Shown here one piece after another: positions 1,976 through 53,679 of a DNA stretch of 64,000 bases. How positions within the stretch are numbered: the stretch's first letter is position 1; every line of letters begins with the position of its first letter. The stretch spans positions 5,093-69,092 of the forward strand of contig JACRHW010000017.1 of NCBI GenBank assembly GCA_016217555.1. Direction: 5' to 3'. Under the pieces are notes generated by a model. That model saw only the letters and a program-made list of their open reading frames with translations. It was not told where the DNA came from and ran no database searches. The position numbers and the translations under genes were made by a program. This DNA comes from Parcubacteria group bacterium. GTDB taxonomy: Bacteria; Patescibacteriota; Minisyncoccia; UBA6257; JACRHW01.

Positions 1976-2908
1976 TTAGTGATGGGGGAGTTTTGGAACG
2001 AGTATATACATGAAATAGATAAGCCCTCCTGTGAGGCTGAAATAGTAGACGAGCCATTTTATTCTTGTGCTTCCGGAAATGATGTGGATTGGTTTTTCTT
2101 CTTTTTTGGGTAGTGTTTCGTGTCGGGTGTACTTAAATATCATGTAAAACAGGAAGTTAAGTAAGGTGACAAGTCCAATATCAAAGTTGTTTAGCCATGT
2201 GGGTTGGTTTCCGAAGCCCATAGACATGAGAACAATCATAATACATTCGCATACTATCCCAAGGATGAGCTTTGTGCGCGGGTGTATGTTAAAATCCGAT
2301 AATACAAGGACCCAGATGAGGAGCATCGATGGTTGCTTAAGAAGAACGGTAATACCAAGAAGTGTGAGCACGCCGATCCATTTAAACCATAGACCAATAA
2401 CCTTAGTAATTCTTCCGCCGTCGAGTGGGCTGAGTGGAATAAGGTTAAAGAGGTTAAGAAAGGCGGCAACATAGCTTAGGGCGAGGAAAAAGAGGTTTGT
2501 TGTCGGATTAAGGAGATATATTCCGTATGCCCCAAGAGCGGCGAGTGACCCCAAAAGTGGGCCACCATAGCCTACGAATGCTTCATCTTCTGGATGTTCG
2601 AAGGGTGGGGTGAAGATTGCTGCACCAAGAAAGGGGATAAAAATAGGTGCCGAGGTAGGAAGTCCTTTGATTTTGAGAGCAATAACATGCCCCATTTCGT
2701 GGATAAAAAGCATAACGACGAATCCAAGCGCAAACCACCATCCCCAGATAAAAGAATAGGAAAATACTGATACTATCATCGAAAGAATAAGCCAGAGAAC
2801 CTTCGTGAACTTAAGGAATTTCAACGCCTGAAGCGCCTTGAGGAGTTTTCCACCCTTGAAGACGATTGCAATAAAGGATCCAATAGGGGATCGTTTTTCT
2901 TGCATCAT
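1976..2908 (-). CDS. Peptidase M50 / site-2 protease family membrane metalloprotease
   Basis: HEMGH zinc motif lies within a TM helix, and NLIPLSPLDGGRI is the LDG motif of S2P. The protein is polytopic. Confidence 0.65.
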   Translation of the reverse strand: MMQEKRSPIGSFIAIVFKGGKLLKALQALKFLKFTKVLWLILSMIVSVFSYSFIWGWWFALGFVVMLFIHEMGHVIALKIKGLPTSAPIFIPFLGAAIFTPPFEHPEDEAFVGYGGPLLGSLAALGAYGIYLLNPTTNLFFLALSYVAAFLNLFNLIPLSPLDGGRITKVIGLWFKWIGVLTLLGITVLLKQPSMLLIWVLVLSDFNIHPRTKLILGIVCECIMIVLMSMGFGNQPTWLNNFDIGLVTLLNFLFYMIFKYTRHETLPKKEEKPIHIISGSTRIKWLVYYFSLTGGLIYFMYILVPKLPHH

Positions 2909-3058
2909 TTTGCCTCCATTTTTGTTTTCAAGAATCTAAGATAGGTGTACATGAAATCCTATGTGTTGTCAAAAACAGGAAGTGTGTAGATTTTTCCTTG
3001 TTTCGTGTGTTTCCTTTTGGTAAGATGAAGATATTATTAACAATAAGTATAATAGTAT

Positions 3059-22353: not shown

Positions 22354-22436
22354 TTGTATCTAGTATCTTGTATCTGGTATGTGTTCATAGGGGCAGATAA
22401 ATACTAAATACAAGATACTATATACTAACTACTAAG
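22354..22436. repeat. GTATCTAGTATCTTGTATCTGGTATG-type hairpin repeat (family D, copy 1)
   Basis: 5' module GTATCTAGTATCTTGTATCTGGTATG and inverted 3' module ATACAAGATACTATATACTAACTAC. Related copies lie at 31886-31921 and 45431-45556. Confidence 0.5.
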
Positions 22437-23543: not shown

Positions 23544-23682
23544 AGCGCTGTTCGGTAACCTCATACGTATTAGTGCCTGAGCTTGTCGAAGGCCCACCTT
23601 TCTCTAAGGAAACCCTTCGACTTCCTTCGACAAGCTCAAGACAAGTCGCTCGGGGAATACCATGTTTCCGAACAGCGTCGCT
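23544..23682. repeat. Composite palindromic repeat with AGCGCTGTTCGGTAAC terminal inverted repeats (family E, copy 1)
   Basis: Ends are AGCGCTGTTCGGTAACCTCA ... TTTCCGAACAGCG. The interior is CCTGAGCTTGTCGAAGG / CCTTCGACAAGCTCAAG hairpins. Confidence 0.6.
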
Positions 23683-26891: not shown

Positions 26892-27004
26892 GGCGCTGTT
26901 TTGAAACACAATATTCCCTGAGCGAAGTCGAAGGGTTTCCTTAGAGAAAGGCAGGCCTTCGACAAGCTCAGGCACTAGTAATTATGAGGTTACCGAACAG
27001 TGCC
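26892..27004. repeat. Family E composite palindromic repeat, copy 2 (reverse orientation, internally deleted)
   Basis: GGCGCTGTT ... CCTGAGCGAAGTCGAAGGGTTTCCTTAGAGAAAGGCAGGCCTTCGACAAGCTCAGGCAC ... GGTTACCGAACAGTGCC. The interior is the reverse complement of the copy-1 interior. Confidence 0.6.
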
Positions 27005-31885: not shown

Positions 31886-31921
31886 CTTGTATTTAGTATA
31901 TCGTATCTTGTATAGTGTATG
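31886..31921. repeat. Family D repeat fragment (copy 2)
   Basis: CCTTGTATTTAGTATATCGTATCTTGTATAGTGTATG. Confidence 0.4.
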
Positions 31922-31954
31922 AATCCGCCGCAGGCGGATTATATCAGATACTAT

Positions 31955-32805: not shown

Positions 32806-32866
32806 TGCCTGAGCTTGTCGAAGGCCTACCATAAGGAAACCCTTCGACTTCGCTCAGGGACTATAG
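32806..32866. repeat. CCTGAGCTTGTCGAAGG / CCTTCGACTTCGCTCAGG hairpin module (family E interior type)
   Basis: GTGCCTGAGCTTGTCGAAGGCCTACCATAAGGAAACCCTTCGACTTCGCTCAGGGAC. Confidence 0.5.
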
Positions 32867-32975
32867 ATAAAGACTAACTTACTCAGAGTTGTGAGCTGAT
32901 ACTTTTACACCTATTGACTAAACTACACCGTTTGTGGTATTTTTGTTTTAGCACATAGAAAAAGGAGGTAGTGAG

Positions 32976-37141: not shown

Positions 37142-39754
37142 ATGTTTGCCCCATTTAATCGTTTTACATTGAAGGCTCAGGAGGCGATTCAGGCGGCGCA
37201 GGATCTTGCTCTTGAGCGGAATAATGCTGAGCTTAAATCACTCCATCTTTTGGTTGCCCTCCTTGATCAGGAGGAGTCTTTGGTATTTGTTGGGCTTGCA
37301 AAGTTGGGGGTAAATTTGAATTCATTGCGTGCCGCAGTTGAAGTCGAACTCAATCGCCTTCCTCGCGTCGCAGGAGGTGCGCAAAAGGCCCAGCTTTATA
37401 TTTCACAGGAGATGATGCAGATCCTCGAGATTGCGTCTCGAGAGGCGGCTAAAATGAAAGATGAGTTTATCTCGTGTGAACATCTCTTTCTTGGTGTGCT
37501 TGAGGTCGCATCAAGGAGTCGTGAGGTGTTGAAGAATTTTGGAATAAATTATGCAGAGTTTGTAAAAACCCTCCTTGATGTAAGGGGGGGTATGCAGGTG
37601 AACGACGAAACACCAGAGACGAAGTTTAAGACACTTGAAAAATACGCAATCAATCTTACTCAGCTTGCGCGTGAGGGGAAACTTGATCCCACTATTGGGA
37701 GGGACAATGAGCTGAGGCGATTAATACAAATTCTTTCGCGCAGGACAAAGAACAATCCTATTTTAATTGGTGAGCCAGGGGTGGGAAAGACGGCGATTGT
37801 TGAGGGGTTAGCGCAGCGCATTATATCGCAGGATGTACCTGATTTGCTTCAGGGAAAGGAGGTGATTTCACTTGATCTGGGGGCGCTTATTGCTGGTACT
37901 AAGTTTAGAGGTGAGTTTGAGGACCGTCTGAAGGCGTTTATCAAAGAACTTCAAAAGCAGCAGGGGAGGTACATTCTTTTTATCGATGAAATTCATATGA
38001 TTGTAGGGGCTGGTGCTGCAGAGGGGGCGGTTGATGCAGCAAATCTATTAAAATCTCCCCTTGCACGAGGAGAGCTACGTGCCATTGGAGCGACAACGCT
38101 CAAGGAGTATCAGCGACATATCGAGAAAGATGCGGCGCTCGAGCGTAGATTTCAACCTATTCTTGTGGAGGAGCCAAGTATCGAGGATAGTATCGCTATC
38201 CTCCGCGGTCTTAAAATTAAATATGAAATGCATCATGGTGTCAAAATTTCTGATGGTGCTATTGTCGCGGCGGTAAATTTAGGAAGTCGTTATATTTCTA
38301 ATCGCTTTTTGCCCGACAAGGCGGTTGATCTTATAGACGAAGCTTCATCAAGTGTAAAGATTGAGATGGGGTCTATGCCAGTAGAACTTGAGAAGGGTTC
38401 TCGCCTTATTACTCGGCTCGAGATAGAAAAAGAATCGCTTAAGAAAGAGTTGTCGATGGTAAGTAAGAAGCGTCTTCACGAGATAGAGATCGAGCTTACA
38501 AAACTCCATGGAGAAAAGGATGGCTTGATGGGGCAATGGAAAAGCGAAAAAGATGCAATAGAAAAGGTGAACGTATTGCACCGCTCTATTGACGAATTTA
38601 AGCAAGATGCCGAGCGCTACGAACGGGAGGGTGATCTTGAAAAGGTTGCCGAGCTTGTGTATGGAAAAATTCCGCATGCAGAGAAAACACTGACGAATCT
38701 CGAAAGAAAAACAGCAAAAGCACAGCAAAGTTTCCAATTTGTAAAGGAAAAAGTTACCGAGGAGGAGATCGCAAAGGTGGTTTCGCGATGGACGGGCATC
38801 CCTGTTCACAAAATGCTTGAGGGCGAATCTGAAAAACTAAGAACGATGGAGGAGGTGCTGCATAGGCGGGTGGTGGGGCAGGAGGAGGCGGTTACCGCCG
38901 TTTCCCGGGCTATTAAGAGAAGTCGTCTTGGACTTTCTGACGAAAATAAACCGATCGGCTCCTTCTTGTTTTTGGGGCCTACAGGAGTGGGAAAGACAGA
39001 GCTTGCAAAAACGCTTGCTGATTTTATGTTTAATGATGAAAATGCAATTATTCGTCTTGATATGTCTGAGTATATGGAACAGCATTCTATTGCGAAGCTT
39101 ATCGGTTCTCCTCCGGGATATGTCGGATATGATGAGGCGGGGCAACTTACTGAAATCGTAAAACACAGGCCATACTCTCTTATTCTTTTTGATGAAATCG
39201 AAAAGGCACATCCCGAGGTCTTTCATATTCTTCTTCAGGTTCTCGATAATGGGCGCCTTACCGATTCGAAAGGGAGAATGGTGAATTTCAAGAATACGAT
39301 TATTATTATGACCTCAAATATTGGAGGGGAGTTTATCCAGGAGGGAAATCTTGGATTTGCAATGGGAGATAGGTCGGTGGGAGAGGTAAATACCAAAATT
39401 AGAATTCAAGATGCGCTTAAGGGCTATTTCCGCCCCGAATTTCTTAATAGAATCGACGAAATTGTGATTTTTAATGCTTTGCGTGAAGAGGATTTGGAAA
39501 AAATTATTGATCTACAATTAACACAAGTGAGAGAGCGTCTTGCTAAAAAGAATATCGTTTTAAAGATAGACGAAAAAGCACGGAAATATCTTGTCGAGCA
39601 TGGCTATGATCGCGATTTTGGAGCGCGCCCCCTGAAGCGTCTTATACAAAAGCTTGTCGTAGATGCTGTTGCTCAAAAGCTTATTTCCGGAGAACTTAAG
39701 GAGGGCAGGGTGAATGTATCGATGAGGGGACAGGAACTTGTCTTTAGCCGGTAA
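37142..39754 (+). CDS. clpB: ATP-dependent chaperone ClpB
   Basis: Two AAA+ modules (GEPGVGKT and GPTGVGKT), a long coiled-coil M-domain between them and a Clp N-domain. 870 aa. Confidence 0.9.
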
Positions 39755-39822
39755 CATTCATCATCGCCTTGTCATTCTGAAGCGTCATCCGTCAACTGGT
39801 GGAGAAGAATCTCCCGATATCT

Positions 39823-39936
39823 TACCCCACCCGAGACCAAAGCTCATCTCCAAAGGGGAGACCGTTACAACCCCCCTATTATAGCGATAACACCTGACTC
39901 CCCCTTGAGGATGATCATTTGGTCTCGGGTGGGGTA
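39823..39936. mobile_element. MITE-like element with perfect 19-bp terminal inverted repeats TACCCCACCCGAGACCAAA (family G)
   Basis: TACCCCACCCGAGACCAAA (39823-39841) and TTTGGTCTCGGGTGGGGTA (39918-39936) flank a 76-nt interior that has its own hairpin. Confidence 0.5.
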
Positions 39937-39964
39937 CTTGAATGAGGCTTTATGAATTATTTAT

Positions 39965-40747
39965 ATGAAATTTCTTAGACGATATTACAATGAGCTTTTT
40001 TCTTTGTGCGTTTTTTCCCCCCTGGTGATACTTGGGATGCGGTCTGGTGTGGTTGGGGGGATAGGTATTGCGGGTTTTCTTACGTTTTTTGCGGCAATAA
40101 TATTCCGGAATAACTATATTACCGCTTTTTCCGTGTTGTTGCTCATACCCTTTTTGGTATTTGGAGATGTGAGTTCTTTTTTTGGAATCGGACCGACAGC
40201 CTTCGGCTCCCTTATTTCTTTAGTATTTTACCTCTTTTGTTCCTCTTTTTTACACAAAAAAAATTGGATATGGATGTGGTATATTCCGGTATGGCTTTTT
40301 GGTTTTGAGCTCTTAGGTAGTATTTCGTTTGATATATTGAAAGATAGTACTATTTTTGTTGCATTTTTCAGTCTCACACACCTTTTTCTTGCTTTATCTG
40401 TTCCGCGAATCCGTCAGCCGGCGGAGGGAATCCAGAAAACATCGATGTTACCACTGGATCCCCACCTTCGTGGGGATGACACCATTACTGTGGATAAGCC
40501 CGTCCTACTTCGTTTTTTTGCTTTTCTTTTTTCCACACTTTTGTTTGAGCTTTTTTGGGTCATACGGGTACTTCCTTTAGGAGTTTTTTTGGGTTCTCTG
40601 TTTATTGTGGTTTTCTTTTATTTCATTACCCACCTCTATCGTGGTTATATTTTAGAAAAGCCCATTCAGTATTATATTCGTCCTAGCGCGTTTACTTTTC
40701 TTTTATTGCTTGCTATCCTGATAACTGCAATTAAAACTCCTTTTTAA
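39965..40747 (+). CDS. Hypothetical polytopic membrane protein with an in-frame palindromic-repeat insertion
   Basis: About 8 TM helices. A hydrophilic loop ...RIRQPAEGIQKTSMLPLDPHLRGDDTIT... is encoded by GGGAATCCAG ... CTGGATCCCCACCTTCGTGGGGATGACA, a repeat module also present intergenically at 63640-63705. Confidence 0.45.
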   Translation: MKFLRRYYNELFSLCVFSPLVILGMRSGVVGGIGIAGFLTFFAAIIFRNNYITAFSVLLLIPFLVFGDVSSFFGIGPTAFGSLISLVFYLFCSSFLHKKNWIWMWYIPVWLFGFELLGSISFDILKDSTIFVAFFSLTHLFLALSVPRIRQPAEGIQKTSMLPLDPHLRGDDTITVDKPVLLRFFAFLFSTLLFELFWVIRVLPLGVFLGSLFIVVFFYFITHLYRGYILEKPIQYYIRPSAFTFLLLLAILITAIKTPF

Positions 40748-40751
40748 TAGT

Positions 40752-42728
40752 ATGCGTACACTTGTAAAAATCTTTCTTTTTCTTTCTATTTTTTCTTTAA
40801 TAATTTTTTCTACCGATTTATTTTTTCCCTATATTACGGGTAAGATTTTTGCATTTCGTTTTTTCATTGAATTTGCTTTTATCGCATGGATTCTTGATCT
40901 TTTTTTGCGAAAAACGTTACGGTTCCGTTTTTCCGAGCCAATAGTGAAGGCTCTTCTCATTTTTTCCGGCTCCCTAATTGTTTCTGCCTTTTTTGGAGTA
41001 AATCCTTCGTTTAGTTTTTGGTCTGATTTTGAACGTAGCGAGGGACTATTCTCCTTTTTTCATTATCTCGCGTTCTTTATTATGCTTCTTGATGTGTTTG
41101 TCATGGATGATTACTATCGTTTAATTAAAGCATTTCTTATTATTTCTCCTTTTATTGCCTATTATCAGTTTTCTAATTATGTAAATATTGAAAAACATGC
41201 TTTTGGAAGAATTAATGGACTTCTTGGAAATCCTTCCTATGTGGCAACATTTCTTCTTTTTGTTTTTGGTCTTGGTTTTTATCTTGTTCTTAAAAATAGA
41301 GAACTGTTTCGCTCAACAAAAGACGTCTTTGTGTTGTTTGAGAACTGGCTTTGGTGTTTAATTTTATTGATTGACATTCCTGCCTTTTTCTTTACACAAA
41401 CACGTGGAGCATATGTGGGCGTTTTTGTGGCATTGGTTGTTTATCTTATTATGCTTGGGCGATATGGGGTGGCAAAGGAAAAAAAGATGGCCCGGTACAG
41501 TCTTCTTTTTCTGAGCATTTTTATCGTTTTGGGCAGTGTGCTTATCTTAAAAACAAATGTACTCCCATCGAATTTAAAAGATCCGGGAAGTTTGGTTTCT
41601 CGTTTTTCTACATGGAAGGCCGCTTTGCGTGGATTTCTTGATCGTCCTTTGCTCGGATATGGTCCCGAAAATTTTAACATTGCTTTTGATAGACACTATG
41701 ACCCAGTCCATTCGGGACTAGAGACGTGGTTTGATCATGCACACAATCTTCCCGTTGAGCTTCTTGCGGTGACAGGCGTTGTCGGTTTTCTTGCGTATTT
41801 ATATATTTTTTATATTTTTTTTCGCTATTACTTCTCGATTATCCTTAAAAAACGTCCTATCTATGAAGCGGCTCTTTTCCTTGCAATCCCTGTAGCATAT
41901 TTCATTCAAAATCTTGCCCTATTTGATTCTCTTACCTCTTATGTTTTATTTTTTACATTTCTCGCCTTGGCACGCACCATCGTACTAAGGGAAACCAATA
42001 CATATAGTACCAATATAGTGTATTTTGGACGACCATTATTTATTGGGTTGTGTTGCATCATTCTTTTTTTTGCCCCCCTTTTTGGGATATATTCAAACAT
42101 ATTTGCACTACAAAAAAACATGCGCCTTCTCGCCACATTTTTACCACCACAACAATCGTTTTCTCCGAGCGCAAAAGTAAATGTATATAAGCAACTGTTT
42201 GATTTGCCGGGTTTTGTGGGGAGACGTGAGATTTCTACCGCTCTTGCAAAAGATATATTCGATTGGTCTTCTTCTCGTAATCTTAGTAAGTTTTCCAGAG
42301 AAGATTTTGATGCTTTGAATGAAGGAATAAATATGAGTGAAGAATATCTAACACATGACCCTTCTCATATTCGCAATTATTATTTGTTGGGATATGCTTA
42401 TTCATCAATTGGGGGTTATTTTAAAGACAGAAAGGCTCTGATTCGCGGAGAGGATATCCTCAAAAGAGCAGATAAGTTGAGTCCTGGTAGAATAGAATTT
42501 CTTGAAGTTCTGATTAAAAATCTTGGCGCGCAGAAGAAATATGACGAAGCTCTTAAGTATTCTTTAGAAATTATACGATTGCGCCCCGATATGGAGGCGG
42601 GTCACCGATTCGCCGGAGTCTTTTATCAAAAGATAGGAGAGACAAAGAAGGGGAAAGAAGAGCTTGGCAAAGCATTATTGATTAATCCATCTTCAACCGC
42701 ATCCATATTTTTAGAAGAGAACAAGTAG
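40752..42728 (+). CDS. O-antigen-ligase-like (Wzy_C) membrane protein with C-terminal TPR repeats, paralogue 1
   Basis: TQTRGAYVGVF ... WFDHAHNLPVELL is a Wzy_C/O-antigen ligase signature. The C-terminal 200 aa are TPR-like. 658 aa. Confidence 0.55.
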   Translation: MRTLVKIFLFLSIFSLIIFSTDLFFPYITGKIFAFRFFIEFAFIAWILDLFLRKTLRFRFSEPIVKALLIFSGSLIVSAFFGVNPSFSFWSDFERSEGLFSFFHYLAFFIMLLDVFVMDDYYRLIKAFLIISPFIAYYQFSNYVNIEKHAFGRINGLLGNPSYVATFLLFVFGLGFYLVLKNRELFRSTKDVFVLFENWLWCLILLIDIPAFFFTQTRGAYVGVFVALVVYLIMLGRYGVAKEKKMARYSLLFLSIFIVLGSVLILKTNVLPSNLKDPGSLVSRFSTWKAALRGFLDRPLLGYGPENFNIAFDRHYDPVHSGLETWFDHAHNLPVELLAVTGVVGFLAYLYIFYIFFRYYFSIILKKRPIYEAALFLAIPVAYFIQNLALFDSLTSYVLFFTFLALARTIVLRETNTYSTNIVYFGRPLFIGLCCIILFFAPLFGIYSNIFALQKNMRLLATFLPPQQSFSPSAKVNVYKQLFDLPGFVGRREISTALAKDIFDWSSSRNLSKFSREDFDALNEGINMSEEYLTHDPSHIRNYYLLGYAYSSIGGYFKDRKALIRGEDILKRADKLSPGRIEFLEVLIKNLGAQKKYDEALKYSLEIIRLRPDMEAGHRFAGVFYQKIGETKKGKEELGKALLINPSSTASIFLEENK

Positions 42729-42776
42729 CGTGTTCAGGAGGCCAATAATTACAATCAAAACTTTTTTTAAAATTCC

Positions 42777-44753
42777 ATGCGTGTTCTTGTAAAAATCTTT
42801 CTTTTTCTTTCTATTTTTTCTTTAACGTTTTTTTTAGCTGACTATTATTTCCCCTATATTGTCAGCAAGGTATTTCCTTTTCGATTGTTTATCGAGCTTG
42901 CGACAATCTCGTGGCTCATCAATCTCTATTGGTTTCGTATAATACGTTTTAAGTTTTCTGAACCTATTGTAAAGGCTGTTCTTGTTTTTTCTGGGGCACT
43001 TCTTGCCTCCACTCTTTTTGGGGTGAACCCACTCTTTAGTTTTTGGTCTAATTTTGAACGGAGCGAGGGGCTTTTTTCTTTCTTGCATTATTTAGCATTT
43101 TTCATCCTCCTCATTGATGTATTTTCTGAAGATGACTACTATCGTCTTATTAAGTTTCTTCTTCTCCTCTCCCCGCTTATTTCTTATTATGGGTTTTCGA
43201 GTTTTCGGGATGCTAATACTTATCAGTATGGAAGAGTGTTTGGGGTTTTTGGAAATCCCTCATACCTTGCGGCATTTCTTATTTTTGTGTTTGGGTTTGG
43301 TGTGTTGTTGATTTTGAGAAATATAGAATTTGCTAAAGTTTTGAAGGATCCCTTGTTGATTGTCGAAAATATACTTTGGATAGTTCTTTTGTTGGGAGAT
43401 GTTCCAGCATTCATTCTTACACAGACAAGAGGTGCTTACATTGGACTTTTGGTTGGCGTGCTTGTTTTTCTTATCTTTCTTTTGCGGCAGGGAAAGGGGG
43501 TTCAGAAAAAATATGCTGTCGGAGGTCTCATTGTACTTCTTTCTCTTGTTGCGCTTGCGGGGTTTGTCATTTTAAAAACCAAAATAGCTCCGGCGAATCT
43601 TAAGGATCCATCCACACTTGTCTTTCGTTTTGCTACGTGGGGTTCAGCATGGAAATCATTTCTCGACCATCCTCTTTTCGGGTATGGTATGGAAAATTTT
43701 TCAGTTGGATTTGATAAGCACTATAACCCAATCCATTCGGGTGTTGAAGTCTGGTTTGATCACGCCCACAGTGTGATATTTGATGCACTTGCAAGCACGG
43801 GTCTCTTGGGACTTATTTCCTATATTGCTATTTTTGTAGTACTATTTCGTTTCTATCTTCCCGTGATCACAAAACGACGCCCGGTGTTGGAGGCTGGTGT
43901 ATTCTTTGCCCTTCCTATTGCATATTTTGTCCAAAACCTTGTTTTGTTTGATACCCTTTCTTCCTATATCCTTTTCTTTCTCTTTCTTGGTGTGGTGCGT
44001 TCAGTGTTTTTGAAGGAGACAAGCAAGAATAAAGAGAAAACTTTTTTTGCGGCACACCCCATACTACTAAGTTTTGTAGTGGTGATGCTTGTTATTGCTG
44101 TAGTTTTTGGTATTTATGCGAACTTTGTTGCTTATCAAAAAAATAGGGAGTTAAGGACCGCCTACACTCTTTCTCGCCAATCCCAACTTCCTCGTGGAGT
44201 GGAGGAGTATCGAGGATTACTTGATATGCCAGGATATTTAGGAAGAAGGGAGGTGATTAAGGATTTTGCCGCTTATTTGTATGAGTGGTCCGCAAAATCT
44301 GATTTGCGGTCTCTTTCCAAAGAGGATGGTGGTGCCCTGGGTGGGGGCTTGAGGACAGTAAACGATTTTCTTGACAAGGAAGATCCTCAATACCTTAATG
44401 GATATTATCTTTTTGCGAATACCTATAACGTGATTGCATTTAAATTGGGTGATGCTACCGTGTTTCAAAAGACGGAATCTACCCTAAAAGAAATGAATAC
44501 AAAGAGCCCAAATCGCATAGAAATAATCAATTTGCTTGCAGATAATCTTATTGCACAGAGAAAGTATGACGAGGCGCTTAGTTATGCGCTTCAAATTACA
44601 ACACTGCGTCCTGACATGGAGGTGGGGCATAGGCTTGTTGGGTTTGTATACAATAAGATAGGGAGGCGTGACGAAGCTAAAAAAAAGGGGGAGGAGGCTT
44701 TACGTATCAATCCAAGCTCTACCGCCGCAGAATATCTTAAAAAAATACGTTAA
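42777..44753 (+). CDS. O-antigen-ligase-like (Wzy_C) plus TPR membrane protein, paralogue 2
   Basis: Same length (658 aa) and architecture; TQTRGAYIGLLVG ... WFDHAHSVIFDAL. The 5' 50 nt are nearly identical to paralogue 1. Confidence 0.55.
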   Translation: MRVLVKIFLFLSIFSLTFFLADYYFPYIVSKVFPFRLFIELATISWLINLYWFRIIRFKFSEPIVKAVLVFSGALLASTLFGVNPLFSFWSNFERSEGLFSFLHYLAFFILLIDVFSEDDYYRLIKFLLLLSPLISYYGFSSFRDANTYQYGRVFGVFGNPSYLAAFLIFVFGFGVLLILRNIEFAKVLKDPLLIVENILWIVLLLGDVPAFILTQTRGAYIGLLVGVLVFLIFLLRQGKGVQKKYAVGGLIVLLSLVALAGFVILKTKIAPANLKDPSTLVFRFATWGSAWKSFLDHPLFGYGMENFSVGFDKHYNPIHSGVEVWFDHAHSVIFDALASTGLLGLISYIAIFVVLFRFYLPVITKRRPVLEAGVFFALPIAYFVQNLVLFDTLSSYILFFLFLGVVRSVFLKETSKNKEKTFFAAHPILLSFVVVMLVIAVVFGIYANFVAYQKNRELRTAYTLSRQSQLPRGVEEYRGLLDMPGYLGRREVIKDFAAYLYEWSAKSDLRSLSKEDGGALGGGLRTVNDFLDKEDPQYLNGYYLFANTYNVIAFKLGDATVFQKTESTLKEMNTKSPNRIEIINLLADNLIAQRKYDEALSYALQITTLRPDMEVGHRLVGFVYNKIGRRDEAKKKGEEALRINPSSTAAEYLKKIR

Positions 44754-44791
44754 TTATAGTATTGCCTGAGCTTGTCGAAGGCTTACCATTT

Positions 44792-45445
44792 ATGGAAGAT
44801 TTTTCTCAGATATTTCAGACTATCGTTCGTGCGCTTTACATGGTTGCAGGGGGTATTTCTGATGTTTCTTATAAGGAACATTTTAAGTCTGAAATTTTTC
44901 TTTTTGTAGAGGCATATTTTAGACGCGATGTGGAATTGTTTAAAGAACGTGGTTTTATTCTCGATTTCTTTTTGAAGACGGCTATGGATTTGCAGTTTAC
45001 GGCAGAAGAAAATTATATTGTTTTGCACAGGGAAATAAAATCCTTTACAGACAAGTTTGTGGCACATGCAAACGACAAACTTCTTGTTTCCGGTATTCTC
45101 GATTTCCGGAAACTGTTTCCGGAAAAACCAATGCCTGAAGGAGGAGAGGCGGAAGGGGTGGGAAGCCGTTTTGGGATCAATCTCCCTATCCGTGCACCAA
45201 AGATGCGATCGTTTTCTGGTAACAGGATTGTCGGGCTTACGGAACGTCAGCAGTCTATTCTGGAACTTCTCTGTGAAAAAGAAAGTATTCCGCTTATGGA
45301 TGTCCTTGCTCGTTTTCCGGAAATGAATGAGAAGACTATTCGGAATGATCTTCGACTATTGTGTGAGAAGGGGTATGTAAACCATATAGGAAGTGGCGGG
45401 CGGGGAAGTAGATACCAGTTTGTACGTGAAGTATCTAGTATTTAG
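44792..45445 (+). CDS. Hypothetical protein with a C-terminal winged-helix/DeoR-like HTH
   Basis: RQQSILELLCEKESIPLMDVLARFPEMNEKTIRNDLRLLCEKGYV. The start was moved to the ATG at 44792 because the track start lies in a repeat. Confidence 0.4.
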   Translation: MEDFSQIFQTIVRALYMVAGGISDVSYKEHFKSEIFLFVEAYFRRDVELFKERGFILDFFLKTAMDLQFTAEENYIVLHREIKSFTDKFVAHANDKLLVSGILDFRKLFPEKPMPEGGEAEGVGSRFGINLPIRAPKMRSFSGNRIVGLTERQQSILELLCEKESIPLMDVLARFPEMNEKTIRNDLRLLCEKGYVNHIGSGGRGSRYQFVREVSSI

Positions 45446-45556
45446 TATCGTGTATCTGGTATGACCAACCAATAAGAAAGAATTAATAGTAAGGAAAATC
45501 AAAGAATGTGCTTGTGGGGTATACTAACTACAAGATACTGGATACAAAATACACAT
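45431..45556. repeat. Family D repeat, copy 3
   Basis: GTATCTAGTATTTAGTATCGTGTATCTGGTATG ... GGTATACTAACTACAAGATACTGGATAC. Confidence 0.5.
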
Positions 45557-46088
45557 TCTGTAACGTAATTTCTTATCGATTCGTTATAATTAACAAGGAA
45601 CACAGTGTTTTTTATTAGTTTTCCACAGTGAGATCTATTGCAAGGGGGTTGCTTTTTTTGCTAAAATAGAGTATACTAAGCAGGACTCAAGGAATGTAGG
45701 AAAACACTAGGTTTTTTCGCCAAACGGGCGGGCTTTTAGGGAGCGTTTTTCTTTTCACACCTGTTTTATCGCAATGTTGTGATACAATAGGTGTGAAAAG
45801 AAAAGGGACGTAACGATTGCAGTAGATAGACAGGAGGTGATGGACTGTTATTTGAAAACTGAATAAGGGCTAGATAAAAAATGGTAGCGCCTGAGCTTGT
45901 CGAAGGCTTACCAAATTAATTCTTTTTTTCTCGATGTAATGAGTCGTAATCAAGGTCGGTGATTCGTTTAACACGAATCATGCTCTCGGCTCTTCTAGAA
46001 ATGTGTATGTAAACAAATAATTAAGCGATTTGTTTTGTGGCGTCGAACCACAAAGGAATCGCGTAACAAAAATTAAATACAAAAAATT

Positions 46089-49000
46089 ATGGGTAATTCC
46101 AAATTTAAAAAAGTTGCGACGAAAGTTGTTGCAGTAAGCCTTTCGCTTACTACCGCAATTTGGCTTTCTGGCGCGGCTATGGCGCTTCCTTTGGCAGCGA
46201 AAGCGGCCACTGTTGATGAGCTCATGGCACAAATCACTGCACTTCAAGCGCAGGTTGCTAGTATGCAGGCTCCAGTAGCTTCAAGTGCGTATTCTTACAC
46301 ACGCAATCTTACGGTGGGATCGCGTGGAGCTGACGTAACAGCTCTTCAGGATACATTAATCTCTGGTGGATATCTCAAAGTATCTGCAACAGGATACTTT
46401 GGTGCTTTGACTAAGGTAGCTGTAAAGGCGTGGCAGGCAGCAGCCGGACTTCCTTCAACAGGATATTTCGGTCCTATGTCTCGCGCAAAGGTAGCAACCG
46501 TTGGTGGAACACCTACCTCAGGTACAACACCAACACCAGGCATAACACCTACCCCAGGTACAACACCAGTTCCAACTGGCACTGGCTTGGCCGTAGCAGT
46601 TGACGCATCAAATCCGGCAGCGGGTAGTTTTCCAGCTGGTGGAAGTCAGATTCCATTCTTGAAATTGAAGTTCACAGCAGGTTCAGCGGATACAACCGTA
46701 ACTGCAATGAATGTATATCGTGGAGGACTCTCTAGCGATAACGATATCTCGAATGTTTATTTGATGGATGGTTCATCGGTTTTGGCAACCAATCTTGGTT
46801 TGTCGAGCGGAAAAGCTTATTTCTCTCTCGCAACTGGATTATTTACAGTTAAGGCGGGAACAAGCAGGGTTGTTACTGTTGCTGCAGATATTTCTGCAAC
46901 AAACACAGCATCTCATGCTTATACATTTGGTGTAAATTCAGCAGCTGATATTACTCCATCTGCGGGTGTTACAGGTACATTCCCAATGACGGGTAATACC
47001 ATGACAGCCGTTTCAGTAACAAATCCGGGACTTGCAACACTTACAGTTGCCAGCGTTTCAACAGGTGGTTCTGTAAACGCAGGAACAACTGGTTTCTTAG
47101 CTGGCCAATTCTCTCTACAGTCCGCAAATAGTGCAGTAAGTGTAAAATCTGTTAAGTTGACAGATGTAGGAACCAATACTCATTCATCAGATATCTCAAA
47201 CATCAAATTGATGAACGGAGGAACACAGGTGGGTGCAACCATTGTGAATGCAAATTCAGATGGTACGGTTGTGTTTAATCTTTCAAGCAATCCTCTACGG
47301 GTTGCATCAGGTCAGACAATTAACCTTTCTGTATATGCTGATGTTGTAGGAGGTGTTAATCGAACACTTCGCTTCACAGTTCAGCACTCTTATGATGTTA
47401 CCGCTACCGACATGACATATAATGTTGGTGCTGGTCTTCTTGGAACATATCCAGTACAGGCTTCTTCTGTAAGTATCAGCTCTGGCTCTTTGGTGGTTAG
47501 CAAGAACGCAGCTTCTCCAACAAACTATATTGCTCGTGGTGCAACCAATGCAACATTGGCAAAGTTTGACTTTAATGCTTCTGGTGAAGCAGTGAGGATT
47601 ACTGCTATTACCTATCAGGTTGGTACTTATAGTGCTAATCAAGAAAATGCAGTATGGAATAACTTGAAGCTCGTTGATGATCAGGGTGTTCAAATTGGAA
47701 CAACCGCTACAGCCGTTTCTTCTGATAGCGTTTCCACAACACAACACTCAACGGCCCTTACTGGCTTGAACTACATTATTCCTGCAAATACAACTCGTTC
47801 GCTTTCTATTGTTCTTGATACTGTATCAACATACGCAGGAAGCATGACAGGAAGTATTACTTCAATAACAGCTCAGGGTTACACCTCGCTTACAGCTATT
47901 CCAAATCCTGGTCCAGATACTTCAACACACGCAGGGAATGCTCTTAGCGCATCTTCAAATCCATTCGTTGCTTCACTTAACAATGGTGTAGGTGCAATTA
48001 GTAGTGTTTCTGGTGCACAAGGTATCAAAATAGGATCTTTTGCCTTGGCAGCAGGTGCAGCAGAAGGAGTAAATGTTACAAGTCTTACCGTGAAAACCGG
48101 TTCGGCCGTTTCATCTCAATATCGTAACTTGAAAGTTATGGTGGGCAGTACTCAGCTAGGTAATACGAACTCAACGCTTACTGATAGTACTGAGTATTCA
48201 GTTTCAGCTTCTAATATCATGATCCCAGTAGGTGGACAGATTGTTGTAGATGTCTATGCTGACACCGTTTCTGGTGCAACATCGTCAGCTGCAGCCGTTC
48301 TTCTTTCTGGTGGTTCAGCAAATGGTGCTTCAACCAACACAACGAGGACTCTTACTAATTCTAGCGGCACAAAGCTTACGAGCTCTGTTACTGTAACTGG
48401 TCAGGTTGATACTATAACAGCATCAGGGAATCTTACAGACGCGTTAGCTCCCTCACCTGTAGTGTCCCAACAAGTTGCTATGGGTGTAACAGGCGTGGTT
48501 CTTGGAACGTTCAAACTTTCTGAGACAACCAATAGCGAGTCAATTGATGTTACGAGCATTGTTGTAAATTCAACTTCAACATCTGCCAACGACATCAAGA
48601 ACCTTAGGCTTATGAATGGAACAACTCCAGTTGGTTCATCTGTGGCAGGTCTTCCTGGTTCAGGTGCACAAGCAACTACCTTTACGATACCTATCGATCC
48701 TGTCACTGGTCACTCTGTCTTTATTGTTCCTCAGAATAACTATGTAACTTTGAGTGTTGTTGCTGATACTAATGATGCAACAGGTGGTGCCGCTTCTAAT
48801 GACACCATAACAGTTGGTCTTGGTGCAGTTACTGGTCAAGGACATTCCTCGGCAGCACCTGCAAATGCAACACCTACAAGCGTAGACAGTTCCGCAACCT
48901 TTACTCTTCATCGCGCAACAATGAGTGTTGCCGTTGCTTCCGGAAGTTATGTGGATAACAGCATTACGGACAACAAGATCGTGGCAAAGTTTAGCTTTAC

Positions 49001-49379
49001 TAATTCAGGGAATTATGATGCTACTATCGCTACATCTTCTATCCAACAGGTTGGTGCAGCGGTAACATCGACTGGTGTTACCTTCACCTTCTTTGATGGA
49101 GACACGAATGCTTCAATCGCAACAACTGGTGCAGTTACAGCAAGCACTTCTGCTGCTGTAGTAACATTTAGTACTGCGGTAACGGTTGCGAAGAATACAA
49201 CGAAGACTATTATAGTGAAAGCGAATCTTTCTACTGCAAGTTATACCTATAGCAATCCAGCTAAGTCATATGCAGTCAATCTTACGGGTTTTGCCTGGGG
49301 AGATGGCTCAGTGACAGGTATTTCTCCTGACACAAGCAAGATTACTTTCCCAATTTCTGGTCCTTCAATGTCCCTGTAA
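46089..49379 (+). CDS. Large secreted surface protein: signal peptide, PG_binding_1-like peptidoglycan-binding domain, Thr/Pro linker, then about 8 degenerate 100-120-aa S/T/G/V-rich beta-type repeats (S-layer/adhesin-like)
   Basis: Signal peptide MGNSKFKKVATKVVAVSLSLTTAIWLSGAAMALPLAAKA. PG-binding domain RGADVTALQDTLISGGYL...GYFGALTKVAVKAWQAAAGLPSTGYFGP. Linker TPTSGTTPTPGITPTPGTTPVP. Recurring blocks (D/N)I(S/K)N(I/V/L)xLM(N/D)G(S/T). Confidence 0.6.
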   Translation: MGNSKFKKVATKVVAVSLSLTTAIWLSGAAMALPLAAKAATVDELMAQITALQAQVASMQAPVASSAYSYTRNLTVGSRGADVTALQDTLISGGYLKVSATGYFGALTKVAVKAWQAAAGLPSTGYFGPMSRAKVATVGGTPTSGTTPTPGITPTPGTTPVPTGTGLAVAVDASNPAAGSFPAGGSQIPFLKLKFTAGSADTTVTAMNVYRGGLSSDNDISNVYLMDGSSVLATNLGLSSGKAYFSLATGLFTVKAGTSRVVTVAADISATNTASHAYTFGVNSAADITPSAGVTGTFPMTGNTMTAVSVTNPGLATLTVASVSTGGSVNAGTTGFLAGQFSLQSANSAVSVKSVKLTDVGTNTHSSDISNIKLMNGGTQVGATIVNANSDGTVVFNLSSNPLRVASGQTINLSVYADVVGGVNRTLRFTVQHSYDVTATDMTYNVGAGLLGTYPVQASSVSISSGSLVVSKNAASPTNYIARGATNATLAKFDFNASGEAVRITAITYQVGTYSANQENAVWNNLKLVDDQGVQIGTTATAVSSDSVSTTQHSTALTGLNYIIPANTTRSLSIVLDTVSTYAGSMTGSITSITAQGYTSLTAIPNPGPDTSTHAGNALSASSNPFVASLNNGVGAISSVSGAQGIKIGSFALAAGAAEGVNVTSLTVKTGSAVSSQYRNLKVMVGSTQLGNTNSTLTDSTEYSVSASNIMIPVGGQIVVDVYADTVSGATSSAAAVLLSGGSANGASTNTTRTLTNSSGTKLTSSVTVTGQVDTITASGNLTDALAPSPVVSQQVAMGVTGVVLGTFKLSETTNSESIDVTSIVVNSTSTSANDIKNLRLMNGTTPVGSSVAGLPGSGAQATTFTIPIDPVTGHSVFIVPQNNYVTLSVVADTNDATGGAASNDTITVGLGAVTGQGHSSAAPANATPTSVDSSATFTLHRATMSVAVASGSYVDNSITDNKIVAKFSFTNSGNYDATIATSSIQQVGAAVTSTGVTFTFFDGDTNASIATTGAVTASTSAAVVTFSTAVTVAKNTTKTIIVKANLSTASYTYSNPAKSYAVNLTGFAWGDGSVTGISPDTSKITFPISGPSMSL

Positions 49380-49407
49380 TCAGTTTCTCGATAGCACACA
49401 ATCGTTT

Positions 49408-49438
49408 AAAAACCCCTCTTTTTGAGGGGTTTTTAATT
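49408..49438 (+). terminator. Rho-independent terminator
   Basis: AAAACCCCTC-TTTT-TGAGGGGTTTT followed by AATTTT. Confidence 0.55.
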
Positions 49439-52821: not shown

Positions 52822-52957
52822 AGTTTTTCCTCCTTATTGTGTCAAAGTGCACACCTTACTACTATCTAGCGCGAATGAGCCTTTCTGTAAACCCATACAC
52901 TCTACTCTTCTCTTTTTTCTAAAACTTTGATAAAGTAAGTCTTAGTGTATAGATATC

Positions 52958-53029
52958 GCCGGACTAGCTCATTGGTAGAGCGCATCCCTGAAGAGGATGG
53001 CGTACCCAGTTCGATTCTGGGGTCCGGCA
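52958..53029 (+). tRNA. tRNA-Phe (anticodon GAA)
   Basis: GCCGGAC...GTCCGGC-A acceptor stem, anticodon loop CTGAAGA and T-loop GTTCGATTC. Confidence 0.85.
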
Positions 53030-53094
53030 CAATAGAGCTCTATCTTCTAAAGAATAAGCTTTGCTACGGGCTTATTTTTTGTTATCATGAAAAT

Positions 53095-53679
53095 ATGATT
53101 AATAAAGAAAAGCTTTTTGAATTATATACGCATGAAGGTAAATCAATGCAAGAAATTGCAATACTTTTGGGTTGCTCTGTTCACACTGTGGTTTATTGGA
53201 TGCAAAAGTATGATATTAAAAGGCGTTCTATAAGTGAGGCGGTATATAGAAAATGTAATCCAGGCGGAGATCCTTTTGAATTTGTTTTTCCAACCAATCA
53301 AGAAGAAGCACAATTATTTGGTTTAGGGATTGGTCTTTATTGGGGAGAGGGAACAAAAGCAAACGAGAGTTCTGTCCGTTTAGCCAATACCAATCCCGAG
53401 CTAATTAAGAAATTTATAGAGTTTCTTATTACATTTTTTAATATTAAAAAAGGTGATCTTAGGTTTGGCTTACAGATTTTTACAGATATTGATCCTAAAA
53501 AAGCTATGGACTTTTGGATAAAAAAGCTTACAATAAACAGGGATCAATTTTATAAGACGATTATTACGAAATCTGGTTCACTGGGTACTTATAGAAAGAA
53601 AAGTGAATACGGAGTGATTAGTGTTATGTATCACAATACTAAGATGAGAAATGTGTTAGTTGGTCTTTTGCCAATGTAG
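53095..53679 (+). CDS. HTH protein with a LAGLIDADG-like motif (candidate free-standing homing-endonuclease-like gene)
   Basis: N-terminal HTH KSMQEIAILLGCSVHTVVYWM, then LFGLGIGLYWGEGTK, which resembles the LAGLIDADG / GxxxGEGS motif. The stop overlaps the next tRNA. Confidence 0.35.
   Translation: MINKEKLFELYTHEGKSMQEIAILLGCSVHTVVYWMQKYDIKRRSISEAVYRKCNPGGDPFEFVFPTNQEEAQLFGLGIGLYWGEGTKANESSVRLANTNPELIKKFIEFLITFFNIKKGDLRFGLQIFTDIDPKKAMDFWIKKLTINRDQFYKTIITKSGSLGTYRKKSEYGVISVMYHNTKMRNVLVGLLPM

Follow-up and report, generated by a model that had tools for sequence, protein, structure and literature searches.

A candidate S-layer protein gene in a Parcubacteria group bacterium, with a long, conserved and structured leader

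The locus and its protein

The window analyzed here (a stretch of 64,000 nucleotides from a contig of a Parcubacteria group bacterium) contains, at positions 46089-49379 (+), an open reading frame of 1,096 amino acids that is a real coding sequence (NCBI MBI5421261.1). Its current annotation is 'peptidoglycan-binding protein' only. Upstream lie two paralogous genes for membrane proteins with Wzy_C and TPR domains (40752-42728 and 42777-44753, both +; Pfam Wzy_C E values 1e-20 and 6e-21), a gene for a protein with a helical N-domain and a C-terminal HTH_DeoR-like winged helix (44792-45445 (+), with a start that may be TTG 44762 or ATG 44792; Pfam HTH_DeoR E value 1e-4, full-length alignment to its ortholog in locus L064 at 4e-14), and finally a gap of 643 bp (45446-46088). 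An intrinsic terminator (49406-49436 (+); a 13-bp stem and a T-run) follows 27 nt past the stop codon, and the gene is monocistronic, with its own strong terminator. The syntenic order is clpB, winged-helix gene, leader, S-layer protein (SLP) gene, Wzy_C: in 34 loci an ortholog of the winged-helix gene is the immediate upstream neighbour of the leader, and 47 of 90 loci have a Wzy_C homolog no more than 3 kb from the family gene, in most cases immediately downstream of it. We take the Wzy_C/TPR proteins, whose genes are linked to that of the surface protein, as candidate glycan polymerases or O-oligosaccharyltransferases, and the winged-helix protein as a candidate dedicated regulator.

The N-terminal part of the protein (46089-46583 (+)) contains the elements that the preliminary description had named there (signal peptide, PG_binding_1-like domain and Thr/Pro linker, with a short helix where it had a coiled coil), as judged from sequence, HMM and AF2 model. 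The signal-peptide-like N-terminus (MGNSKFKK...LAAKA|AT, aa 1-39, read from the sequence alone) combines a K-rich n-region with a hydrophobic core and with AKA|A at aa 37-40, a pattern kept in the relatives of the protein. It is followed by a helix at aa 42-59 in the AF2 model, by PG_binding_1 (PF01471, aa 72-138; HMM score above the gathering threshold, three-helix fold present) and by the linker (aa 139-165), which has low pLDDT. Some annotations use the name 'cell wall surface anchored protein'; the C-terminus (...ISGPSMSL) has no sortase LPXTG signal with hydrophobic segment and basic tail, and the single LPxTG-like string (LPSTG, aa 121) lies inside the PG-binding domain, such that we rejected an LPXTG surface protein. 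The composition is typical of S-layer proteins: there is no Cys, Ser and Thr make up 27% of residues, and a separate basic anchor domain (pI 9.5) stands against an acidic lattice part (modules, pI 5.35).

Six beta-sandwich modules, delimited by AF2, profile comparison and fold search, occupy 46572-49379 (+), with the stop codon at the end: residues 162-312 (46572-47024), 313-466 (47025-47486), 467-622 (47487-47954), 623-771 (47955-48401), 772-943 (48402-48917) and 944-1096 (48918-49376). They are mutually homologous in all 15 pairwise hhalign profile comparisons (95-99% probability) and 149-172 aa long, which replaces an earlier count of about eight modules of 100-120 aa; the marker motif then assigned to each module does occur, in strict form three times (aa 219, 368 and 835) and in loose forms at aa 525 and 680. 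The expectation of a beta-rich, Ig-like structure was borne out: the AF2 monomer (mean pLDDT 85.9, pTM 0.50) is all-beta after residue 165, and one module predicted alone (pLDDT 92) is a sandwich of the cohesin/Calx-beta/Ig-like type. The top Foldseek matches are tandem Ig-like arrays, and no solved S-layer protein is among the top matches of the PDB fold searches. We propose the six modules as the lattice-forming part.

The fold match to cohesins raises a different reading, a scaffold whose six modules dock secreted proteins through dockerin-like partners; this we consider highly improbable, given that the similarity is at the fold level only (Calx-beta, MG, CLIPPER and integrin domains score equally), that Pfam yields no cohesin match at E <= 1, and that no dockerin-bearing partner was seen in the neighbourhoods examined. 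An enzyme that hydrolyzes or remodels peptidoglycan is scarcely credible. PG_binding_1 does usually accompany hydrolases, and some relatives carry the JGI label 'peptidoglycan hydrolase-like protein with peptidoglycan-binding domain'; however, in SleB, phage endolysins, Zn DD-peptidase and L,D-transpeptidases the domain is paired with a catalytic domain, whereas here it is paired with structural repeats only, with beta-sandwiches throughout past the linker and no catalytic domain in Pfam, NCBIfam, PDB-sequence or fold searches.

More than 500 relatives across Patescibacteria share this architecture, with domain number and length strictly conserved. At 90% identity they form 508 clusters with full-length coverage and lengths of 1060-1300, all of the named ones being Patescibacteria; at 50% identity and E <= 1e-30 there are 513 clusters, and the relatives span at least 97 GTDB species. 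This uniformity bears on the possibility that the protein is an adhesin for host attachment, which would use its PG-binding domain or its Ig-like modules to bind the host surface and would form no lattice. Kuroda et al. proposed host attachment for highly expressed proteins with PG-binding domains (PMC10936435), and adhesins such as PrgB, antigen I/II and Bap typically have tandem Ig-like arrays. That study, however, dealt with archaeal hosts, which have no peptidoglycan, and this makes the cell's own wall the more plausible ligand of the PG-binding domain; adhesins usually vary, whereas domain number and length here are strict across hundreds of lineages; and the protein lacks a separate tip or a domain for ligand binding, its six modules all being homologous. 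We therefore regard an adhesin that forms no lattice as unlikely, although attachment and S-layer roles are not exclusive and an attachment protein is thus a non-exclusive alternative.

The gap upstream of the gene

The gap was originally described as unusually long, and so it is: at 643 bp it is the longest of the 62 in the window (median 109 bp, 90th percentile 318 bp), and long gaps are typical of the family (median 392 bp, 49% of at least 400 bp, versus a background median of 60 bp and 3.4%). Some close relatives have shorter upstream gaps, of 138-287 bp. The original description of the whole 640 bp as leader does not hold for two repeat elements (45431-45552 and 45883-45920); repeat pieces had also been noted in the gap, and these two, a heptad array and an inserted fragment of a dispersed repeat, confirm them. 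The heptad array (45431-45552) begins at the upstream gene's stop codon and consists of (GTATCTN) x4, about 60 nt, and the reverse complement x3. Two further arrays of this arrangement, at 22356-22425 and 31889-31951, also directly follow a stop codon, and the array at the gap is probably a terminator-like or REP-like element outside the leader. The second element (45883-45920 (+)) is an inserted half-copy of a palindromic repeat of about 65 nt (core CCTGAGCTTGTCGAAGG) that has seven copies in the window versus 0.14 expected, with full copies at 23576, 26972(-) and 32808 and a 25-nt identical half-copy at 44764. Among the four genomes compared below, the insertion is present in the window and L094 and absent from L091 and L001, and it is not part of the conserved leader.

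We aligned the leaders of four genomes (the window, L094, L091 and L001) whose proteins are 58-96% identical. A region found by promoter scan (45619-45677 (+)) is nearly invariant in them. It contains an upstream element (TTTTCCACA, 45619-45627), which in canonical family loci, too, precedes the -10 box by about 40 nt, and two overlapping candidate sites, TTGCAA-N18-TGcTAAAAT (45638-45667) and TTGCTT-N17-TATACT (45649-45677; TATAAT in the three relatives), with transcription predicted to start at about 45674-45685, such that about 410 nt of the gap is probably 5' UTR. A block further upstream, TGTAAC-N20-TATAAT (45559-45590 (+)), is conserved in all four genomes and may be a second promoter; the promoter scan did not call it, and its N20 spacer is too long, making it poor as a sigma-70 site. 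At the other end, an A-rich stretch leads to an ATG that has no Shine-Dalgarno sequence before it (SD-like sequences precede 13 of 47 genes in the window).

Structure of the leader RNA

Outside the two repeats the leader aligns end to end in the four genomes, despite proteins down to 58% identity, and contains three hairpins, H1 to H3, the last ending just before the A-rich stretch. The claim of a long 5' UTR is thus supported by a leader that is both conserved and structured (four-genome alignment and RNAalifold). H1 (45747-45804 (+)) spans 58 nt, with 28-nt arms (45747-45774 and 45777-45804; 89% complementarity) and a 2-nt spacer, and has a folding energy of -37.2 kcal/mol on the + strand (z = -8.7) versus -27.1 on the - strand. 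The perfect 12-bp stem reported previously exists, at 45751-45762 / 45789-45800 rather than 45752-45797, and is the core of this longer inverted repeat. We rejected H1 as an intrinsic terminator or classical attenuator: its AU-rich stem is followed by AAAAGAAAAGGG, not by a U-run, and the terminator scan made no call. The alignment gives H1 24 consensus pairs and no double compensations, with C-A mismatches in L094 and L091 that fall on either strand; lacking clean RNA covariation, H1 could be a palindrome at the DNA level.

H2 (45941-45992 (+)) and H3 (46025-46062 (+)), both from RNAalifold on the four genomes, together have 30 consensus pairs, of which five are compensatory (in H3, for example, G-C to A-U and U-A to C-G) and none is broken. 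H2 leaves AAUCAAGGUCG unpaired on its 5' side and displays the AAGGTCG at 45952 as AAGGUCG; H3 has the apical loop CGUCGAA, displaying GUCGAA. The leader contains no conserved small ORF. Rfam 15 at gathering score finds only tRNAs in the window and 14 related loci, and E-value scans of the leader return sub-threshold generic-hairpin miRNA matches or nothing.

Most family members have a related leader, marked by a GUGAGG-loop hairpin, a terminator-like hairpin, a CCUCAC loop and AGGUCGA repeats. AGGTCGA occurs in 43 of 73 loci versus 0.3 expected, the leader A motif occurs 145 times on the + strand versus once on the - strand in the 73 loci, and the GUGAGG-loop hairpin covaries over 60 loci (score 0.416 versus 0.223; 0 of 500 shuffles). 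As we reconstruct it, the canonical leader would begin, at its 5' end, with a hairpin whose loop, (U/A)GUGAGG, is invariant. It would also have a terminator-like hairpin in which the 5' arm (GCCUCGC or GCCUCAC) complements that loop, suggestive of an anti-terminator/terminator switch; a structured domain with a UCCUCAC loop; and, ahead of a start codon that has no SD, between one and five single-stranded AGGUCGA sites. Neither the canonical 5' GUGAGG-loop hairpin nor the strong terminator-like hairpin is present in the leader of the window. Its H1 carries UCACACC in the 5' arm and GGUGUGA in the 3' arm, which correspond to the CCUCAC and GUGAGG of other family leaders (L090 has CCTCCTCAC-gggg-GTGTGAGGGGG), and in this clade GUGAGG-like and CCUCAC-like elements appear to be fused into one long hairpin.

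These results weigh on the view that the region is a functionless spacer inflated by mobile repeats, with H1 a DNA palindrome (an operator or repeat remnant). Such a spacer would account for the two repeat elements, for the short gaps of some close relatives, and for an H1 that shows no compensatory changes and mismatches that are not strand-consistent. The end-to-end alignment outside the repeats, the covariation of H2 and H3 and of the 5' hairpin, and the strand bias of the family-wide motifs all run against it, as does the lack of a conserved small ORF; we consider it quite improbable. We tentatively propose, and give slightly less than an even chance, that the leader is one of a class of cis-regulatory RNAs, so far undescribed, that occurs throughout Patescibacteria and serves the S-layer gene specifically.

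Relation to known systems and proposed mechanism

The closest known system is a Patescibacteria SLP with six Ig domains (1131-1274 aa) and a predicted p6 spiral-pyramid lattice, whose homologs are 'numerous across Patescibacterial classes' and whose published members are A0A1G2EN61 (Nealsonbacteria, 1131 aa), A0A0G1WWP5, A0A1F5NRV7, A0A1F4NSF7 and GMX59286.1 (1185 aa) (10.1101/2024.05.28.596244). It likewise has a signal peptide, six tandem beta-sandwiches, similar length and many homologs in the same phylum, and its transcriptome-supported members have a PG-binding domain, as does MBI5421261.1, which at 1,096 aa is a little shorter and is matched to it by architecture and taxon, not by sequence. 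Length-matched family matches carried accessions other than the published SLP ones, or none. The preprint is itself a computational prediction and describes no leader. It also likens the Patescibacteria protein to Haloferax volcanii csg, which has six Ig-like domains in series (10.1101/2024.05.28.596244). Csg is archaeal and has a C-terminal lipid anchor, whereas MBI5421261.1 is bacterial and has an N-terminal PG-binding anchor, and csg gives neither a sequence match nor a top fold match to it. Geobacillus stearothermophilus SbsB and SgsE start with a cell-wall anchor at the N-terminus and continue with about six Ig-like lattice domains, and the SgsE locus has a glycosylation cluster with the Wzy_C-type O-oligosaccharyltransferase WsaB. 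Their anchor, however, is an SLH or alpha-helical SCWP-binding domain rather than PG_binding_1, their lattice symmetry is p1/p2, and their sequence similarity to MBI5421261.1 is not detectable (SgsE is also described in the supplement to 10.1101/2024.05.28.596244).

We regard the gene as probably that of the S-layer protein of an ultra-small groundwater Parcubacterium, because of its secretion signal, non-covalent PG anchor, flexible linker and six tandem sandwiches, and because of its composition, its monocistronic unit with terminator and its family-wide conservation. The original suggestion of a candidate S-layer protein is supported, in that the beta-rich prediction, architecture, composition and family-wide conservation all fit. 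In the mechanism that we propose, the pre-protein would be exported by Sec and cleaved after AKA; the basic PG_binding_1 domain would tie it non-covalently to the cell's own peptidoglycan, while the short conserved helix may help to oligomerize anchors; the Thr/Pro linker would serve as a stalk; and the six modules would self-assemble into the outer lattice, as suggested by their architecture and by the published AlphaFold-multimer prediction for the family of the same architecture. The 27% Ser+Thr and the linked Wzy_C/TPR genes suggest that the protein is probably O-glycosylated. An apparent S-layer has been seen on Nealsonbacteria by cryo-EM (10.1101/2022.04.20.488981), and the sole measured Patescibacteria lattice constant, 13 nm, fits a three-domain relative better than the six-domain model, 18.5 nm (supplement to 10.1101/2024.05.28.596244). 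Proteins with PG-binding domains, likened to MBI5421261.1 by that domain and by taxon rather than by sequence, rank among the top five secreted genes by expression in three Paceibacteria in a metatranscriptome of 2024 (PMC10936435).

The gene would be a stand-alone transcription unit, with the conserved promoter region, the strong terminator and the structured 5' UTR of about 410 nt. Long 5' leaders of S-layer and other very highly expressed genes include the hairpin leaders of Lactobacillus slpA/cbsA and the STAB-SD of B. thuringiensis cryIIIA. These are likewise long, structured 5' UTRs with stable hairpins before a monocistronic gene for an abundant secreted protein, but have no sequence relation to the leader described here, and the GUGAGG/CCUCAC elements, AGGUCGA repeats and terminator-like hairpin of most relatives suggest regulation in addition to stabilization. 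The leader is conserved and structured, and its hairpins and single-stranded (A)GGUCG and GUCGAA most likely act at the RNA level, where their role would be to tune the stability, read-through or translation of the mRNA of a gene that is probably very highly expressed. If it belongs to the proposed class, the leader RNA would couple S-layer synthesis to some signal or protein, and the winged-helix protein encoded upstream, a candidate partner, may take part in the control. The protein fits an S-layer family already proposed, and it is the long, conserved, structured leader that seems not to have been described before.

A large part of bacterial diversity belongs to Patescibacteria (CPR), almost all of which are uncultured and live on other cells; Minisyncoccus archaeiphilus is the one cultured species. 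Little is understood of their envelope, and the locus is an example of a probable main coat protein, with a neighbourhood signature (clpB, winged-helix gene, leader, SLP gene, Wzy_C/TPR) by which the gene can be located and annotated. The leader is the more useful result: it places conserved, strand-specific, covarying RNA elements before a gene that is probably among the most highly expressed, and offers a way into gene regulation in organisms with very few known regulators.

The surface protein and its family

The open reading frame at 46089-49379 (+) encodes a 1096-aa product identical to MBI5421261.1 ('peptidoglycan-binding protein [Parcubacteria group bacterium]'). Its first residues look like a Sec signal peptide, with MGNSKFKK... 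leading into a hydrophobic core and then AKA|A; relatives keep this pattern. Pfam places a PG_binding_1 domain at aa 79-129 (E 6.9e-12), the only domain that the whole protein yields; the repeat region matched no known domain in Pfam or NCBIfam. Sequence matches in the PDB are solely to PG-binding domains (endolysins, SleB and L,D-transpeptidases). Reading the sequence, we find a Thr/Pro linker and no cysteine. The preliminary description counted about eight modules with a period of 100-120 aa; the spacing of the marker motif (strict at aa 219, 368 and 835; loose at aa 525 and 680) gives approximately 155 aa instead, and the AlphaFold2 model shows six.

The AlphaFold2 model, for which the input was an alignment of 52 full-length homologs (mean pLDDT 85.9, pTM 0.50), contains a disordered signal peptide at the N-terminus, a helix (aa 42-59), a three-helix PG-binding domain, a low-confidence linker (aa 140-160) and six all-beta modules (aa 162-312, 313-466, 467-622, 623-771, 772-943 and 944-1096). 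These modules are true internal repeats, because all 15 module pairs score 95-99% probability in profile-profile comparison. The mature protein (about 105 kDa, pI 5.8; Ser+Thr 27%) combines a basic anchor (pI 9.5) with acidic modules (pI 5.35).

Relatives of this protein form a large family, which falls into 508 clusters at 90% identity and, with E <= 1e-30, into 513 at 50% identity; the top matches are mostly 1060-1300 aa and alignable over their full length. Nearly all named matches come from Patescibacteria lineages (Azam-, Pace-, Lipton-, Wolfe-, Colwell- and Jorgensenbacteria, and Minisyncoccia), with a few exceptions under other MAG labels, and a scan with a single pattern, covering one genome per GTDB species, detected members in at least 97 species. 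The anchor is modular, because in some members (loci L011, L014, L019, L025, L027 and L043; proteins P0019, P0022, P0240 and P0308) an unrelated domain of about 200 aa at the N-terminus, with no Pfam match, replaces the helix and PG_binding_1 while the six modules are kept.

A 2024 preprint (10.1101/2024.05.28.596244) looked in a Nealsonbacteria genome for proteins that combine a signal peptide and an anchor with several Ig-like domains, and proposed a new class of Patescibacteria S-layer protein in which six Ig-like domains form a left-handed spiral, with a predicted assembly into p6 hexagonal pyramids; six-domain members measure 1131-1274 aa and a three-domain relative 643-727 aa. In Kuroda et al. 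2024 (PMC10936435), which the preprint cites, the five most expressed secreted genes of three Paceibacteria include genes for signal-peptide proteins with a PG-binding domain; one of these highly expressed PG-binding-domain genes, PMX_810_sub_00350, is 2079 nt (692 aa), equal in length to GMX57981.1. An apparent S-layer has been seen on Ca. Nealsonbacteria by cryo-EM (10.1101/2022.04.20.488981). Set beside the published six-domain members by description, the window protein is alike in taxon, size and architecture, and it is best regarded as a new member of this recently proposed, still unverified S-layer protein family. Neither a second homolog search nor cluster look-ups of hits with matching length linked it to the published accessions. 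The S-layer interpretation first offered for this locus is sound on the available computational evidence, and the finding itself is real.

Gene neighborhood and composition of the upstream gap

The gene order in the window is clpB, a 260-aa ORF, two Wzy_C+TPR genes, an HTH_DeoR-like gene of about 220 codons, a 643-bp gap (45446-46088), the surface-protein gene, a strong terminator, rpmE, rpsB and tsf. In 90 related loci, each with 2-6 kb of flanking sequence, clpB is found upstream of the family gene 39 times and the HTH_DeoR-like gene directly upstream 34 times (full-length ortholog alignment, E 4e-14); 47 of the loci have a Wzy_C homolog no more than 3 kb away, in most cases directly downstream. 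In the window's own version of this neighborhood (37142-49379) the Wzy_C gene is duplicated and stands upstream of the surface-protein gene, not in its usual downstream place. Because these bacteria are without LPS (PMC5220378), the Wzy_C/TPR proteins may glycosylate the Ser/Thr-rich surface protein or polymerise wall glycan.

At some loci the upstream genes are instead one for an ECF sigma factor and one for DUF5667. In some close relatives (L088, 661-2808; L089, 883-2862) genes for HTH_DeoR, an ECF-type sigma factor and DUF5667 precede the family gene and the gap is short (138-192 bp); the DUF5667 product there is possibly an anti-sigma factor. In Ca. Yanofskyibacterium (PMC10936435 supplement), too, a DUF5667 gene adjoins the three-domain gene, which is highly expressed there.

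Of the 62 gaps in the window, the one before the surface-protein gene is the longest. By a crude ORF-based estimate, which under-counts, family upstream gaps have a median of 392 bp, compared with 60 bp in the background, and 49% reach at least 400 bp against 3.4% of the background; annotated family gaps measure 571, 1147, 1079 and 482 bp, and a few close relatives have only 138-287 bp. The second-longest feature-free stretch in the window, 53031-53669 (639 bp, from tRNA-Phe to tRNA-Thr), has no Rfam match; a 244-aa ORF (52945-53679) crosses it and overlaps both tRNA genes.

The whole 643 bp had been taken as a leader; its unusual length is borne out, but the gap is a composite that includes a heptad array and an inserted half-copy of a repeat. 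The array, an inverted GTATCTN heptad array at 45431-45552, begins at the stop codon of the upstream gene. Such arrays (three to four heptads, each then followed by an inverted array) stand right after a stop codon at 22356-22425, 31889-31951 and 45431-45552, and may be terminators lacking a U-run or REP-like elements. The other component belongs to a dispersed, REP/MITE-like palindromic repeat of about 65 nt (core CCTGAGCTTGTCGAAGG...CCTTCGAC..GCTCAGGG), with seven copies in the window against 0.14 expected (including 23576-23640, 26956-26972 (-), 32808-32870, 44764-44788 and 45889-45913). The half-copy at 45883-45920 is an insertion, because it is present in the window's locus and L094 and missing from L091 and L001. 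Two identical 25-nt half-copies lie 1125 bp apart on either side of the HTH gene, one of them creating an apparent TTG start at 44762. We considered whether these direct repeats (44764 and 45889) border an inserted element carrying the HTH gene, and rejected this reading: the gene is a conserved syntenic neighbor, the repeat is dispersed and the insertion at 45883-45920 is lineage-specific.

Leader conservation within the window's clade

Outside the repeats, the gap can be aligned along its whole length between four genomes (the window, L094, L091 and L001) whose surface proteins are 58-96% identical. The conserved features begin with an upstream element, TTTTCCACA, and include two overlapping promoter-like sites, TTGCAA-N18-TGcTAAAAT and TTGCTT-N17-TATACT (TATAAT in relatives), all kept in the four genomes. 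TGTAAC...TATAAT was rejected as a second promoter on its 20-nt spacer and is retained merely as a conserved block. Assuming a start near 45674-45685, the 5' untranslated region is about 410 nt, and its fold is more stable than that of shuffled sequence (z = -4.3).

Three hairpins come next, conserved like the sites before them. The first, H1 (45747-45804), folds as RNA at -37.2 kcal/mol (z = -8.7), the + strand being better than the - strand by 10 kcal/mol. We do not regard it as an RNA hairpin proven by covariation, since its pairs show no double compensations in the four genomes and its mismatches favor different strands; nor is it a terminator, no U-run following the hairpin. The pairs vary one-sidedly and two genomes carry C-A mismatches, so H1 may act either as RNA or as DNA. 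The other two, H2 (45941-45992) and H3 (46025-46062), together have 30 consensus pairs, five compensatory and none broken in the four genomes, and display AAGGUCG and GUCGAA unpaired.

No Shine-Dalgarno sequence precedes the ATG of the surface-protein gene. Such starts are usual in this genome (a Shine-Dalgarno-like sequence lies upstream of only 13 of the 47 long ORFs in the window); a few window genes have a perfect AAGGAGGTGA, and A/T-rich sequence precedes most starts. The leader contains no convincing or conserved small ORF.

Leader architecture across the family

A single-sequence nhmmer search with the window leader against 69 family leaders matched L001 only, and the wider kinship surfaced only by k-mer enrichment. 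Over 73 non-redundant leaders, AGGTCGA occurs in 43 (expected 0.3) and GTGAGGC in 53 (expected 1.9); CCTCAC and GCCTCGC...GCGAGTTTT are enriched too. The usual order of elements is a -10 box; a hairpin with an invariant 7-nt loop, (U/A)GUGAGG, and G-C closing; a variable segment; a 5-bp GC hairpin followed by U6 (GCCUCGC-n-GCGAG-U6; terminator-like in L059 by a scan tool); a long covarying helix around a hairpin with loop UCCUCAC; and one to five AGGUCGA or AGUCGAA sites flanking covarying hairpins, reaching to about 20-40 nt before the ATG. This leader is found in L007-L090, where it lies approximately 20-350 nt before the family gene (in L059, for instance, at 2669-3009); window positions 45619-46088 are a divergent form. 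In the four genomes of the window's clade, and similarly in L090, a single hairpin, H1, has the GUGAGG-like string as one arm and the CCUCAC-like string as the other. Elsewhere in the window the canonical motifs show nothing systematic.

The arrangement is ordered and strand-specific. The motifs B, C and A (A being AGGUCGA) follow one another in that order in 45 of the 48 loci having all three, and AGGUCGA occurs 145 times on the + strand versus once on the - strand. The 5' hairpin shows covariation in a set of 60 loci, with 77% of its cells paired versus 66% in shuffles and a covariation score of 0.416 versus 0.223 (reached by none of 500 shuffles; slid controls <=0.16).

The terminator-like hairpin has a 5' arm, GCCUCGC (GCCUCAC in four loci), that complements GUGAGGC; this complementarity is slightly longer than with shuffled partners (2.17 extra pairs versus 1.68 +/- 0.14). 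Because this arm is complementary to GUGAGGC and pairs with it in the minimum-energy fold of the L059 leader, the leader sequences suggest that an anti-terminator might compete with a terminator in the canonical leaders.

The leader elements match no family in Rfam 15, and a full-text literature search returned no description of the architecture. The window leader is one form of a conserved, structured and strand-specific RNA architecture that is common to the family and apparently undescribed; this membership in a family-wide RNA architecture is the unexpected part of the locus.
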